From IMG/VR virus record IMGVR_UViG_2548876950_000014: a DNA stretch of 4,183 bases, one strand, 5' to 3'. Shown piece after piece: positions 1 to 4,183 of this stretch. The notes beneath the pieces are model-generated. The model saw nothing but the letters and a program-made list of their open reading frames with translations. It was not told the DNA's origin and searched no databases. Origin of the DNA: a virus. Its lineage: Duplodnaviria > Heunggongvirae > Uroviricota > Caudoviricetes. Each line of letters starts with the position of its first letter. The first letter of the stretch is position 1. The position numbers were made by a program, and so were the translations under genes.

Positions 1-1413
1 CGTGCTCAACAGGGGGATCTTTTCACCGCTTGTGCCAAGTTCTCTTAAACCAAGGTATTGGATAACGGCTAGTGTGCTTGTTTTAGCCAGAATATCGCGA
101 CCGACTGACGTTAAATCAGTCTGCGCTACCGTATCCTTACCGGTGAAATAAGGCAGTTTGTTTGCACCAGTCGCAAGGCCAGCGAGCGCGGTTAAAGTTG
201 CATCCAGAGGCTGTTTGCCTGCCAGCGCATTTGTCATTGTTGTCGCAAAGTTCGGGTCATTGCCAAGTGCTGCGGCAAGCTCATTCAGGGTATCAAGAGC
301 TTCTGGTGATGAACCAACCAATGCGGATATGGCAGCTCTTACATAAGCGGTCGTAGCAATCTGCGTGTTATTCGTACCCTGTGCGGCGGTCGGCGCAGTA
401 GGGACACCCGTTAATGCAGGGCTTGCCAAAGGCGCTTTGAGAGCCAGGGCATTGTTGATAGTTGTGCTGAAATTCGGGTCGTTATTGATCGCAGCCGCTA
501 TTTCTTTCAGCGTATCCAGTGTGCCAGGCGCACCGTTGATAAGTGCAGTTATAGCTGCCTTAACAAAGGCTGTATTTGCGATCTGCGTGCTGTTTGTACC
601 TTGCGCTGCCGTCGGCGCGGTTGGCATTCCTGTCAGACTCGGGCTTTCTATTGGCGCTTTGGTATCAGCAAGATCTTTTACAGACTTAACGGCTTTAGGG
701 GTCGCCGCCATTGTTTCGCTGTCGCTGTTAGTTTCGCTACTGAGCTGAACTAATCCCTTTTGCGTTGTGCTTGCATCCTGCGCCGTATACTTGCTTTTTG
801 CCAGATCGTAGGCTTTTTTAACCGCCAGCGAACTTGCCGCAACATCACTTCTGGTACTGGTTACAGAGTCTGAAATATCAATGCCGATCGTGCGGTTAAT
901 ACGCTCGGATGTATCAATCATCTCCTGGGTAATGGCAGATACGCCAGCAGGGATATTCACCGTACAAACAAGCAGTTCCCCATCTCCCAACTGATATGAA
1001 TCGGTATAGGTTCTGGTAACAAATTCAGCCGCATGAATATGTGACGCTGTATTAACCTGATAGGTATCCTCTCCAAGGAGATATCTTCCCTTCAGCACAA
1101 TTGCATATTTCTTACCTGCGCTAAGTGCAAGAGAAATATCCTTACGATGCTGAATAGTTACCTGGTAGAATTCACCAATATCAACTGACGCAGCGCCAGC
1201 AGTTTTATCACCATCCACTGAGGTGATTAACAGGTTCATCCCACCGCCAGGCTTAGGTAAGAAACCGGCATAAAATCCCGGGTCAACAATCCCCCTGAAT
1301 TTTCGGTTTAGCGCGGCTGACAGATATGGTTCGTGGTATTGCACATCAGCCACCAGAGCCAACGACTCGGGTGATGGGTAAGTAACCGATGTAACAACTG
1401 TAACGTCATTCAT
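1..1413 (-). CDS. phage tail fiber protein, N-terminal 471 codons; gene continues past the window start (C-terminus not in window)
   Basis: Manual minus-strand translation in the frame ending at 1413 (ATG = revcomp of 1411..1413) has no stop codon down to position 1 and begins MNDVTVVTSVTYPSPESLALVADVQYHEPYLSAALNRKFRGIVDPGFYAGF. It is absent from the ORF track, apparently because it has no stop inside the window. It contains TQKGLVQLSSETNSDSETMAATPKAVK, SPALTGVPTAPTAAQGTNNTQIATTAYV, ALDTLNELAAALGNDPNFATTMTNALAGKQPLDATLTALAGLATGANKLPYFTG and VGRDILAK, which match from memory the conserved shaft motifs of P2 gpH and lambda Stf. AAGGA Shine-Dalgarno lies 8 nt upstream of the ATG. Confidence 0.9.
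   Translation of the reverse strand, partial: MNDVTVVTSVTYPSPESLALVADVQYHEPYLSAALNRKFRGIVDPGFYAGFLPKPGGGMNLLITSVDGDKTAGAASVDIGEFYQVTIQHRKDISLALSAGKKYAIVLKGRYLLGEDTYQVNTASHIHAAEFVTRTYTDSYQLGDGELLVCTVNIPAGVSAITQEMIDTSERINRTIGIDISDSVTSTRSDVAASSLAVKKAYDLAKSKYTAQDASTTQKGLVQLSSETNSDSETMAATPKAVKSVKDLADTKAPIESPSLTGMPTAPTAAQGTNSTQIANTAFVKAAITALINGAPGTLDTLKEIAAAINNDPNFSTTINNALALKAPLASPALTGVPTAPTAAQGTNNTQIATTAYVRAAISALVGSSPEALDTLNELAAALGNDPNFATTMTNALAGKQPLDATLTALAGLATGANKLPYFTGKDTVAQTDLTSVGRDILAKTSTLAVIQYLGLRELGTSGEKIPLLST
217..660 (-). repeat. in-frame tandem duplication inside the tail fiber gene, 2 units of 222 bp (74 codons each; units 217..438 and 439..660)
   Basis: Peptide unit B KAPIESPSLTGMPTAPTAAQGTNSTQIANTAFVKAAITALINGAPGTLDTLKEIAAAINNDPNFSTTINNALAL is followed directly by unit A KAPLASPALTGVPTAPTAAQGTNNTQIATTAYVRAAISALVGSSPEALDTLNELAAALGNDPNFATTMTNALAG. 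At nucleotide level the plus-strand string atctgcgtg recurs at 359 and 581, exactly 222 nt apart, with about 40 nt of near-identity after it and divergence elsewhere. The segment after unit A (KQPLDATLTALAGL) looks like a degenerate start of a third unit. Confidence 0.85.
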
Positions 1414-1421
1414 CAAGCATA

Positions 1422-1426
1422 TCCTT
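1422..1426 (-). promoter_or_regulatory. Shine-Dalgarno (AAGGA) for the tail fiber gene, overlapping the TAA stop of the upstream 144-aa gene
   Basis: Minus strand reads gcaTAAGGAtatgcttgATG; the TAA stop of the 1425..1859 gene forms part of TAAGGA, 8 nt before the fiber ATG at 1413. Confidence 0.5.
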
Positions 1427-1859
1427 ATGCTGTAGTCGTGTTTATGGCCATAACTGCGGTATATGTTTTGCCCACATACAGCGAGTCTTCCTGGACACAA
1501 ATAATGGCGATTGGCTTGTTCTCGTTATCCAGTACAACCAGAGTGTTGAATGGGTAGTTTTTCCCTTCCTGCAACTGGCTTTGATCAAGGTCCATTCGGA
1601 CAGTAATTATCCCACCTGAGTAGGTTGGCACGAGGTTGATGGTGCAAAATTGACTGGTTAGTTCTGCCAGATCGAAAGCCTTTGGCAGTTCTCCAATCTC
1701 ATAAGTGCCATCTCCTTTCTTAGTAACCAGCGAACTGGTTCCGAAAACGGCCTTGCTGATTAAAAATCGAGAGCCTTTGTTAATGGACGATTCAGCGCGC
1801 CGCTGATAGTAATAGTCCAACAACTGACTCTTATAGAGGTTTGTTGAGACGTCAGACAT
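1425..1859 (-). CDS. hypothetical phage structural protein, 144 aa, immediately upstream of the tail fiber gene; possible baseplate or fiber-attachment component
   Basis: Complete ORF in the track (MSDVSTNLYKSQLLDYYYQRR...). It is co-oriented and 11 nt from the fiber start, with its stop inside the fiber SD. ATG at 1859 is preceded by a weak GGGAA SD-like motif (ttaGGGAAaatcATG). It sits between baseplate and fiber genes. No family recognised by eye. Confidence 0.7.
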   Translation of the reverse strand: MSDVSTNLYKSQLLDYYYQRRAESSINKGSRFLISKAVFGTSSLVTKKGDGTYEIGELPKAFDLAELTSQFCTINLVPTYSGGIITVRMDLDQSQLQEGKNYPFNTLVVLDNENKPIAIICVQEDSLYVGKTYTAVMAINTTTA

Positions 1860-1910
1860 GATTTTCCCTAATCAATGTTGTGAAGCCTCATTGTAAGATA
1901 AGTAACTTGT

Positions 1911-1933
1911 CACCCCGCCCTGCGGACGGGGTG
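1911..1933 (-). terminator. GC-rich stem-loop just downstream of the stop of the 278-aa gene, in the only sizeable intergenic gap (1860..1937); possible attenuator or mRNA-stability hairpin, not a canonical intrinsic terminator
   Basis: Plus strand caccccg (1911..1917) is the exact reverse complement of cggggtg (1927..1933). On the minus-strand RNA, CACCCCGUCCGCAGGGCGGGGUG can form about 10 bp (7 Watson-Crick, 1 G-U, 2 inner G-C) around a 3-nt loop. The downstream sequence ACAAGUUACUUAUCUUAC is U-containing but not a clean U-tract. Confidence 0.3.
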
Positions 1934-1937
1934 ATTG

Positions 1938-2774
1938 TCAGGCATCGCTATCCAGCAGCAAATCATCTGCGCGGGTGCGATCAAACGTAGGCGTCGATTT
2001 CACAATAGTGCCGCCCGGCGTTGCAGTGATCGGGGCGCTAATCGAGGTAACTCCAGTAAGCGAAATTGTATCCGAAGTTTCAAACCAGCAGTACGCTTTT
2101 TCGGTATCAGAAATCTCGTTCAAAGTGATCATGTCGGCGTGTTCATTTACAACAACCGACAAATAGAGCGTAAGCCCATCAAACACTATATGCAGTGGCA
2201 GTAGAGGCTTTACGAACTGATTAAACTTTCTGAGAATTTCTTCTGTAATTGCGGACTGATCTATCGTGCCAGTAATACCCATTGTCCGGGCCAGGTCGTT
2301 TATGGGAATACTGATCATCCCTCTGGAAGTCAGAAACATCTCGCCGAATGTGCCGCCGGTAGTCTCCAATGTGCTTTCTGGTATTAGAACTGTGCCATAG
2401 GGATGACGCTCAAGGTCCACCGGTGCATATATCGGATCCCATAAAACAGAAATACCGTTAAATTCGCGGTAAATTGTCTGGTTTATAGGACGTTCAGTTC
2501 CCTTAAAGTGGATCTCATCAAGCCGCTGTTGTAACAACATCGGAACGGAAGATGAGTTCGAGGTTCTGATAGTAAAGAACTGGCCAAGTTCATTTGTCCT
2601 GGTCTCCAGATCCTCCTTGCTCATGGAGAAAATAGACTTCCGGTTGGTAATTCGCTCCAACCATGGGTCAACAAAGGTGTCCATCATTGACTGAATCAAA
2701 TCAGCCAATGATTTATAGAGCAATGACTTTTGCTTAGCTGATGTAAGCCGGTTATTAAACCAGGAACGCTGCAT
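1938..2774 (-). CDS. hypothetical phage baseplate or tail protein, 278 aa, translationally coupled to the upstream baseplate J-like gene
   Basis: ORF track gives 1938..2777 (279 aa, MMQRSWF...), but codon 2775..2777 is GTG only 1 nt after the AGGAGG run. The ATG at 2774..2772 sits 4 nt after AGGAGG and shares its A with the TGA stop of the upstream gene (TGATG), so I place the start at 2774. Position between a J-like wedge gene and the fiber suggests a wedge or fiber-attachment role. No family recognised by eye. Confidence 0.75.
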   Translation of the reverse strand: MQRSWFNNRLTSAKQKSLLYKSLADLIQSMMDTFVDPWLERITNRKSIFSMSKEDLETRTNELGQFFTIRTSNSSSVPMLLQQRLDEIHFKGTERPINQTIYREFNGISVLWDPIYAPVDLERHPYGTVLIPESTLETTGGTFGEMFLTSRGMISIPINDLARTMGITGTIDQSAITEEILRKFNQFVKPLLPLHIVFDGLTLYLSVVVNEHADMITLNEISDTEKAYCWFETSDTISLTGVTSISAPITATPGGTIVKSTPTFDRTRADDLLLDSDA

Positions 2775-4183
2775 CACTCCTCCTCATACGAAATATTAAA
2801 GGTGGAGTTTTCTGTATCCAGATAAACGAAATCGTAAAAGCCGTTGGACTCATTCCACTCGACAAATTCCAGATAAAAGTCGCGGAAATAACCCAGCGTT
2901 TCGATAAACGCCCAAACGTCTTTTTTCTTAATCAGGATGTACTTCCCGACGCGGTTCGGATCAAAGAAAGTTGAGTCGCGCCCAAATTTTGTTTCCAGTG
3001 CCGACTTCAGCTCATCGGTCACATTCTCAATGGTCAGGCTTGCCGATATCCGTCCGGTGATGGTTATCTTAAATGGTAGTTTTCTGACCTCTTTATACGA
3101 GAATTTCTTGTTCAACTCATTCGGCACCTTCTTAAAGGCAGCCAGGATCATTTCTTCAAGCTCTGACTGGCTTTTATTTGGATGCCACCCTGAAATAAAT
3201 ATCTTATTGATATTCCGAACATTATAAGCACCATCTAATTTCTCTTGCTGGCCTTCGCCCCATGCCTTTACCCAGGACAGTCCCGGGATGTTACGCACCA
3301 GAAAATACGTATAGTCCCCGCCCCATACGACCTGATCATCATAGGCAAGGTAATATTGTGCACGGTTACGTGTGATCTCCGTTGTTTCGGCATCGGTACC
3401 TGCGGTTATAGGTGTCGTTGTCTTAACTGAAATCAAATTAGCTAAATTAGCCGCAGAATCGACAGGCGTCAGGTTTTGGCCAGCAACCAGGGTTATATCG
3501 CCGTTGGTGCACCATACCTTAAGCGTAATGGTCGAGCCTTCTGGCGGTATTTGCCCAATTAGCCCATCACCGAATCGAACCCCCAACTGCTCGGATGGTT
3601 TATAAAACTCAACGTAGACCTGGCTTTTACTACCGGCTAACCGGAACATAGTGCTGGAAGACCACTGCGTGGTCTTACCATCGGTCGTCACGAATACTTC
3701 CAGCTTATAGCAGACAGCAGTGAGAGCCTTTGATAACACGACTTCCAGAAATTCTTTGGCTGCCGTAACGGTATATGTCACCTCCTGGATTTCCAACTGT
3801 GCCACTTCTACCGTACCGGTGCCGTCAACCAACCTGCATACATCCATAGTCATGTAAGGATACTGGTCGTCAGATATTAAAGGCATGTTTTTGGGGATTA
3901 CCGCTGGGGCATCTTCACTTGTGGCGGTGATCTCAATCATCCCCGATGACGGTGTTGGCTTGGTACCAACGTAACTATTCGTTTCTGCCGCTGCCAGGAT
4001 AGAAGAACGCCGCGTCGCGGTCGATATAAAGCCTTCAGCCAGCGCCGCATCGGCATACTGAAAGCACCTGTAGACAATCTGGGTAATAAACAATGTCAGC
4101 ATCGAGACAAATTGAGAGCCGACAAACTTGAACCGCCCCGGGTTTCCTGGAGAGTGTTTTATCTGTGAACTCAGGCTGCCAGA
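2774..4183 (-). CDS. baseplate J-like wedge protein (T4 gp6 / P2 gpJ / Mu gp47-type); probably 5'-partial, reading frame open to the window end
   Basis: ORF track reports 2774..4102 (442 aa from the first in-window ATG). Translating upstream of 4102 in frame (…SGSLSSQIKHSPGNPGRFKFVGSQFVS-MLTLF…) gives no stop up to 4183, and there is no SD before the 4102 ATG (caatttgtctcgATG). The segment AGTDAETTEITRNRAQYYLAYDDQVVWGGDYTYFLVRNIPGLSWVKAWG resembles from memory the Baseplate_J signature (acidic A-E-T/S-D-E block, then R.R, then GG..Y and PGV/L). Only about 25 residues precede the FISTATRR region where J-family proteins usually have more, which also suggests the true start is upstream. Confidence 0.75.
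   Translation of the reverse strand, partial: SGSLSSQIKHSPGNPGRFKFVGSQFVSMLTLFITQIVYRCFQYADAALAEGFISTATRRSSILAAAETNSYVGTKPTPSSGMIEITATSEDAPAVIPKNMPLISDDQYPYMTMDVCRLVDGTGTVEVAQLEIQEVTYTVTAAKEFLEVVLSKALTAVCYKLEVFVTTDGKTTQWSSSTMFRLAGSKSQVYVEFYKPSEQLGVRFGDGLIGQIPPEGSTITLKVWCTNGDITLVAGQNLTPVDSAANLANLISVKTTTPITAGTDAETTEITRNRAQYYLAYDDQVVWGGDYTYFLVRNIPGLSWVKAWGEGQQEKLDGAYNVRNINKIFISGWHPNKSQSELEEMILAAFKKVPNELNKKFSYKEVRKLPFKITITGRISASLTIENVTDELKSALETKFGRDSTFFDPNRVGKYILIKKKDVWAFIETLGYFRDFYLEFVEWNESNGFYDFVYLDTENSTFNISYEEE
2779..2784 (-). promoter_or_regulatory. Shine-Dalgarno (AGGAGG) for the 278-aa gene, embedded in the final Glu codons of the upstream gene
   Basis: Minus strand reads tat GAG GAG GAG TGA TG: the C-terminal YEEE codons of the J-like protein spell GAGGAGGAG, 4 nt upstream of the ATG at 2774. 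Confidence 0.55.

Follow-up and report, generated by a model that had tools for sequence, protein, structure and literature searches.

In the curated record of bacteriophage P1 the genes that surround the start of the tail fibre gene follow the order sit-pmgA-bplA-16-LPs-R-S-U, LPs being a late promoter. Gene R was sequenced and named long ago (GenBank M25470 and M81956, attributed to Guidolin et al., 1989), and M81956 carries the annotated -22 and -10 boxes of the promoter Ps, a transcription start at nt 559 and the R ATG at nt 581. The original annotation of the P1 genome described the product as a "structural or assembly protein of tail fibers", and both RefSeq and PHROG 2032 label gpR a "tail fiber assembly protein". 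LC-MS/MS of purified virions found R with three peptides and 26% coverage, in a study that assigned it to the baseplate wedge as the counterpart of T4 gp8, on the strength of an HHpred probability of 98.7% to A511 gp105, PDB 6HHK (Gonzales et al., 2022; PMC9024508). R was also scored as essential in a genome-wide CRISPRi screen (EOP <5.2e-5), which cites Guidolin et al. (1989) for its listing of R as essential and whose authors stress the polarity of CRISPRi (PMC10695390). Interference at R would also block S and U, and therefore that result alone does not prove that R is essential.

A cryo-EM preprint on the P1 tail-baseplate (10.1101/2025.07.21.665459) describes each wedge as two BplA conformers plus gp16, which is called homologous to T4 gp7. 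There the density seen at the wedge edge was too weak for gpR to be built, and a predicted gpR dimer was docked on gp16. The preprint proposes that the long fibre is attached via gpR and/or the unmodelled C-terminus of gp16, and leaves room for a further, unknown protein that would lie between gpR and fibre. In P2-type and R-pyocin fibres the phage-specific part regarded as docking to the baseplate is the domain PF12571, and host-range swaps exchange the receptor-binding region downstream of it (PMC6363177).

Gene R of a P1/P7-like prophage

We have analysed a stretch of 4,183 nucleotides of a caudoviral genome (hereafter the window), in which every gene lies on the minus strand. BLAST found it to be 97–98% identical across 4.1 kb to the P1-like phages JL22, RCS47, P1, P7 and SJ46, and by these matches the phage is identified as a P1/P7-like prophage. 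This ruled out an SfV/e14/Mu-like prophage, a first guess made from the gene order, and replaces the P2/Mu-like surroundings that an earlier note on this DNA had assumed. The protein-coding features are:

1425..1859, minus strand: gene R (gpR, 144 aa), a virion baseplate/fibre-attachment protein and first gene of the R-S-U operon (open reading frame, identity to P7/P1 gpR, P1 CDS R, phrog_2032, AF2 model)
1422..1427, minus strand: TAAGGA, in which the stop of R overlaps the Shine-Dalgarno of S (junction sequence)
904..1413, minus strand: N-terminal domain of S (about residues 1–170), the constant partner of R (synteny, 84 of 84 loci)
1..903, minus strand: rest of S in the window, with fibre repeats and the constant part Sc running into the invertible segment; the frame leaves the window (PF03406, Phage_fiber_2, repeats and the P1 annotation of Sc and repeated elements)
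1938..2774, minus strand: gene 16 (gp16, 278 aa), for a wedge protein reported to be homologous to T4 gp7 / P2 gpI and proposed as the partner on which R docks (P1 annotation; phrog_2015, E=6e-148; preprint 10.1101/2025.07.21.665459)
2774..4129, minus strand: bplA, a T4 gp6 / baseplate J-like wedge protein that lacks its first 78 nt through an IS insertion (phrog_1369, E=2e-208; Baseplate_J; end of P1 homology)

The frame that the earlier note had placed at 1425–1859 and called unrecognised has exactly these limits, with its ATG at 1859 and its TAA at 1427..1425 on the minus strand. It is, by identity, gene R of a P1/P7-like phage, a gene already known and long named, whose late promoter and start of transcription have been mapped (GenBank M25470 and M81956). 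Its product is 100% identical to P7 gpR and 99.3% identical to P1 gpR; length, flanks (16 upstream, S downstream), Ps/LPs promoter and 11-nt spacer are all the same, so that R itself is without material difference from the P1 and P7 copies, while the window differs from them in the interruption of bplA by an IS1203-like element. Against P1 the R frame has five synonymous and one nonsynonymous changes (dN/dS about 0.06), and against Cronobacter phage JK004 pS is 0.78 and pN 0.17, values that clearly point to a coding frame under purifying selection.

The tight junction with the fibre gene described before was also found as stated. S starts with the ATG at 1413, leaving a spacer of 11 nt (1414–1424), and the junction reads GCA TAA GGA TATGCTTG ATG, with the TAA of R forming part of a TAAGGA Shine-Dalgarno 8 nt ahead of the S ATG. 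With the stop of R placed inside the ribosome-binding site of S, translation of R is read here as coupled to that of the fibre protein. The neighbour downstream is indeed a tail fibre, as judged from its PF03406 repeats and a phrog_454 match at E=0. The 278-aa protein that precedes R is P1 gp16, starting at the ATG at 2774, and its former description as equivalent to gpI/gp48 agrees with the homology to T4 gp7 given in the preprint. The program-made list of frames extends gene 16 by one codon, to a GTG at 2777. At this end of gene 16 the sequence GTGATG (2772–2777) holds both the stop of bplA (TGA, 2776..2774) and the start of 16 (ATG, 2774..2772), and because the two overlap by one base, the wedge genes bplA and 16 appear to be translationally coupled as well.

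Homology to P1 ends at 4129, which corresponds to nt 78 of P1 bplA, and the junction lies at 4129/4130. The last ~57 nt of the window are the terminal end of an IS3-family element of the IS1203/IS629 type, of which 100% identical copies exist in more than 2600 plasmids; no plasmid in PLSDB spans the exact bplA-IS junction. bplA is thus disrupted in this prophage, the listed 442-aa frame beginning at an internal ATG, and the assembly of its baseplate may be defective. At the other end, the Cin recombinase site cixR is found at 43–62 on the minus strand, TCCAATACCTTGGTTTAAGA, the same as the site annotated in P1. Its crossover lies at about 52/53, and positions 1–52 therefore fall inside the invertible C segment, which switches the C-terminus of the fibre and hence the host range.

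The late promoter ahead of R

The intergenic region between 16 and R differs from that of P1 by a single base in the alignment, which allowed the transfer of the following features:

1881, minus strand: start of transcription at the late promoter Ps/LPs, lying 22 nt ahead of the R ATG (M81956 and alignment)
1890..1895, minus strand: LPs -10 box TACAAT, same as in P1 (P1 annotation transferred by alignment)
1900..1908, minus strand: LPs -22 box AAGTTACTT, the P1 late-promoter element, same as in P1 (P1 annotation transferred by alignment)
1865..1869, minus strand: putative Shine-Dalgarno-like AGGGA, 5 nt ahead of the R ATG, ...TTAGGGAAAATCATG (read from the sequence)
1910..1932, minus strand: GC-rich hairpin CACCCCGTCCGCAGGGCGGGGTG, lying past the stop of gene 16 and ahead of the LPs -22 box, with no T-run (RNA fold)

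Because the promoter elements map directly ahead of R, the classical tail-fibre operon of P1, R-S-U, begins with this gene. Neither a sigma-70 promoter scan nor an intrinsic-terminator scan of the 16-R gap made a call, as expected of a late promoter specific to the phage and of a hairpin that has no T-run. The hairpin, which is unannotated in P1, begins a few nucleotides past the stop of gene 16 and abuts the -22 box; its folding energy is -22.3 kcal/mol (z=-3.6), and none of 200 shuffles was equally stable. A hairpin of other sequence occupies the equivalent position in the 16-R gap of phage D6, which suggests a conserved structural element, be it a terminator, an RNA end-stabiliser or a promoter insulator.

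A conserved region with a proposed docking role

The survey of synteny gave a constant picture. All 84 R-encoding loci examined have gp16 upstream and, immediately downstream, a frame with the S N-terminal domain (about residues 1–170), and in all 84 R ends at a stop codon of its own, as a separate protein of 144 aa and not as the N-terminus of a fibre. R is thus always accompanied by this fibre domain, the point on which the earlier note had asked for a survey. The exact spacing, with 11 nt between R and S and 78 nt between 16 and R, was kept in 81 of the 84. The order sit-pmgA-bplA-16-R-S is preserved in phage D6, with an R only 45% identical, in JK004 (74%), and in L084 and L087, two distantly related viral contigs; every member of the R family with an examinable context was found in a P1-type baseplate module. 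In these two contigs (L084:6426-10535 and L087:6427-9158) the S N-terminal domain is a separate protein of 324 and 350 aa, respectively, followed by a separate long protein of 1044 and 560 aa. PHROG matches identify the long protein as a fibre in L084; that of L087 had no PHROG match. Because both contigs encode the N-terminal domain of S separately, it seems that docking domain and distal fibre can be two polypeptides.

R diverges in step with the wedge proteins gp16 and BplA and with S(1–170), as seen in the protein identities with two phages and a distant contig:

JK004: BplA 74%, gp16 65%, R 74%, S(1–170) 65%
D6: BplA 42%, gp16 43%, R 45%, S(1–170) 41%
L084: BplA 44%, gp16 37%, R 34%, S(1–170) 38%

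The distal part of S is, in contrast, a mosaic. D6 shows about 92% DNA identity near cixR and in the repeat region, as opposed to 41–45% protein identity in the N-terminal domain, R and the wedge genes, and this difference implies, at the level of sequence, a recombination boundary inside S, downstream of about residue 170. A total of 201 records matched the window, most of them with Stx-converting-phage names and partial cover, and the S repeat region matched many of the records so named.

The family itself is made of proteins of about 140 aa, conserved down to about 24% identity, and is narrow by this measure, because an exhaustive profile search of 1.84 billion representatives returned only 31 proteins at E<=1e-3. 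Single-protein scans for related loci that started from remote members gave none for P0062 and P0060 and only a fragment for P0047. The earlier note had seen no motif of a known family in the protein. This stands for the copy of Pfam-A that we used, which does not include PF26881 and gave nothing significant for R or for 20 family members, but not for other resources, where phrog_2032 (PHROG 2032) covers gpR residues 1–144 with E=7e-85 and the homologues of R all bear the precomputed Pfam tag PF26881. This Pfam family may already record a relation to PF12571 or to PF25691, the family of gp105.

Predicted structure of gpR

The AF2 model of gpR, built with 22 homologues, has a pLDDT of 87 and a pTM of 0.81, and consists mostly of beta-strands with one N-terminal helix; a model of S(1–200) from an alignment of 12 sequences reached a pLDDT of only 38.6. 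Searched against the PDB, the predicted fold of gpR matched baseplate-periphery and fibre-adaptor proteins, which are given here with the value of each match:

HFTV1 baseplate protein, 8.7
phi812 176-aa baseplate protein, 7.3
Klebsiella phage KP1 gp7, 7.3
GP4 fiber-tail-adaptor, 6.9
KP1 334-aa baseplate wedge subunit, 6.2
phiKZ gp139, 6.1

Foldseek placed the model on A511 gp105 (6HHK) with a probability of 0.97–0.99, although the E-value was only about 0.05. A resemblance to the gp8/gp105 type is therefore supported for the modelled fold. The sequence comparisons gave less: HMMER searches of all PDB sequences with R and two R-family profiles returned chance matches only, and hhalign did not lift the R family above noise when the target was one gp105 sequence or a gp105 profile of 23 sequences (for the profile, probability 0.2%; 101 of 300 controls with shuffled columns scored equally well). 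Since the R and gp105 profiles were shallow (Neff about 3.5–3.9) and were aligned with no secondary-structure term, this result does not contradict the published HHpred probability of 98.7%.

Stronger matches came from BFVD, a collection of predicted viral structures, where the gpR model had 63 matches at E<=1e-3 (best 2.5e-7, TM 0.55–0.70, about 140–150 columns). Most are named "tail-collar fibre protein" or "phage tail fibre protein N-terminal domain" and lie within fibres of 200–1300 aa, including a Peduovirinae (P2-like) fibre, and a few are free-standing proteins of 127–190 aa. The targets are themselves predictions, and because Foldseek gives no position of the match inside long fibres, their N-terminal placement was taken from the entry names and from the register of hhalign. 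The tail-collar entries exceed gp105 in the significance of their structural match to gpR (E 1e-7 vs 0.05).

In P2 itself, residues 1–151 of gpH correspond to PF12571 (DUF3751, tail-collar fibre N-terminal domain) with E=3e-57. When the R family was aligned with 13 diverse PF12571 domains by hhalign, a collinear alignment of 105 columns was obtained that pairs R 7–128 with gpH 4–113. Its score of 26.9 (P=0.0012, probability 19%) was reached by none of 300 column shuffles (mean 12.0, max 21.5), but a control with reversed sequence scored 23.3. The PF12571 HMM had no match at E<=1 to R or to any of the 20 family members, and a link between R and PF12571 at the level of sequence is suggestive only.

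In P2, H follows I after 10 nt with no small gene between them, as the earlier note had stated, and in 10 of 12 other phages with a PF12571 fibre the annotated neighbour immediately ahead of the fibre gene is of gpI, YmfQ or tail type. R holds the corresponding place behind gp16. The note had concluded that the small gene is an extra component, which is probably not right, because the modelled fold of gpR matches the PF12571 domain that is fused in P2-type fibres and R is more likely to have been split off. P2-type phages probably have no separate R gene because an R-like module is fused to their fibre.

The probable role of gpR at the baseplate

Our overall reading, in which we have considerable confidence, is that gpR is a virion protein at the outer edge of the wedge, seated on gp16 and holding the S fibre by its N-terminal domain. 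It would be a small, mostly beta-strand structural protein, made late from Ps/LPs and located at the periphery of each baseplate wedge, where it presumably contacts gp16. There it would form or complete a socket for the N-terminal domain of S, again through a presumed contact, and it may also relay the receptor-binding signal of the fibre to the wedge. It might be present as a dimer, like gp8/gp105, or as one copy per S chain, like the fused PF12571. The identity of the gene, its promoter and transcription start, the presence of the protein in virions and its essentiality enter this model as shown here or reported elsewhere. The guess made from the DNA, that of a fibre-attachment adaptor or a baseplate accessory protein, was right in spirit: the P1 literature proposes the same and the fold searches support it, and structure prediction followed by structural search, as had been recommended, led to proteins of the baseplate periphery, fibre adaptors and fibre tail-collar proteins. 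The matches are thus tail structures, and the frame is conserved as coding.

A close variant would make gpR a true wedge subunit, a dimer of the T4 gp8 / A511 gp105 type that serves the assembly of the wedge or baseplate, with the fibre attached elsewhere, for example at the C-terminus of gp16. This we consider unlikely. R has a promoter of its own, shared with the fibre genes but not with those of the wedge, the R stop is coupled to the start of S, its best structural matches are to tail-collar fibres instead of gp105, and it is constantly accompanied by the N-terminal domain of S.

Less likely again, and in our opinion improbable, is a tail-fibre assembly chaperone that helps S to fold or trimerise and has no function in the finished virion, a role that would fit the RefSeq and PHROG 2032 label, the alternative left open by the wording of the original P1 annotation and the modest mass-spectrometry signal of three peptides, but against which stand the presence of R in purified virions (PMC9024508), the absence in Pfam and PHROG of any match of R to a tail-fibre-assembly family save for the name of phrog_2032, the position of R upstream of S when U/U', annotated as assembly/chaperone proteins, already occupy the usual chaperone position downstream, the match of its fold to structural baseplate and fibre N-terminal domains, and its co-divergence with the wedge proteins and not with the exchangeable distal fibre.

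Given the presence of R in virions, its place ahead of the fibre gene, its fold of a structural module and an operon that already encodes U/U', the database label is probably a misnomer, and that of gpR and PHROG 2032 should read baseplate/fibre-attachment structural protein. A practical point concerns fibre swaps in P1, in which R, gp16 and the first ~170 residues of S should be retained together as a docking unit that co-evolves, and only the part beyond it replaced.

Comparison with possible relatives

Gene R is an already named gene of a model phage and as such is no discovery; what follows concerns its possible relatives. We would group gpR with the peripheral modules of the baseplate, i.e., T4 gp8, A511 gp105 and the PF12571 domain of P2 gpH. 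A511 gp105, its phi812-type relative and T4 gp8 are dimers at the wedge periphery that sit on a gp7-type protein, and the same arrangement, a dimer in contact with gp16, is modelled for R where it is seen for the gp8/gp105 type. The gene order of A511, gp103(J-like)-gp104-gp105-gp106, runs parallel to that of P1, with a gp7-type wedge gene preceding gp105 in one (gp104) and R in the other (16). However, the identity of gpR with these proteins is only 5–12%, Pfam keeps PF26881 (the R family) and PF25691 (that of gp105) as separate families, and the lengths are different, R having 144 aa, gp105 173 aa and the chain of T4 gp8 334 aa. The fiber-tail-adaptor of Ralstonia phage GP4 (PDB 8JOU chain a, 136 aa), described by its PDB title alone, has 8% sequence identity and is a candidate homologue at best.

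A difference from the P2 type lies in the covalent arrangement. There the PF12571 domain is fused to the fibre, so that a trimer presumably has three copies of it. R is free-standing, and the S fibre of P1 has its own N-terminal domain, different from PF12571.

We found no statement in the searchable literature that unifies gpR, PF12571 and gp105/gp8, and such a unification is possibly a minor new angle on the gene. Our proposal, which we offer tentatively and rate a little short of an even chance, is that gpR is a free-standing homologue of PF12571 and that PF12571, A511 gp105 and T4 gp8 belong to one ancient family of fibre-docking proteins. P1 would represent a "split" state, in which R stays with the baseplate lineage and S plugs in by a second, co-evolving N-terminal domain. 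Were the structural link to PF12571 true, contractile-tail phages would attach their fibres by one module, fused to the fibre as in P2 or free-standing as in P1.
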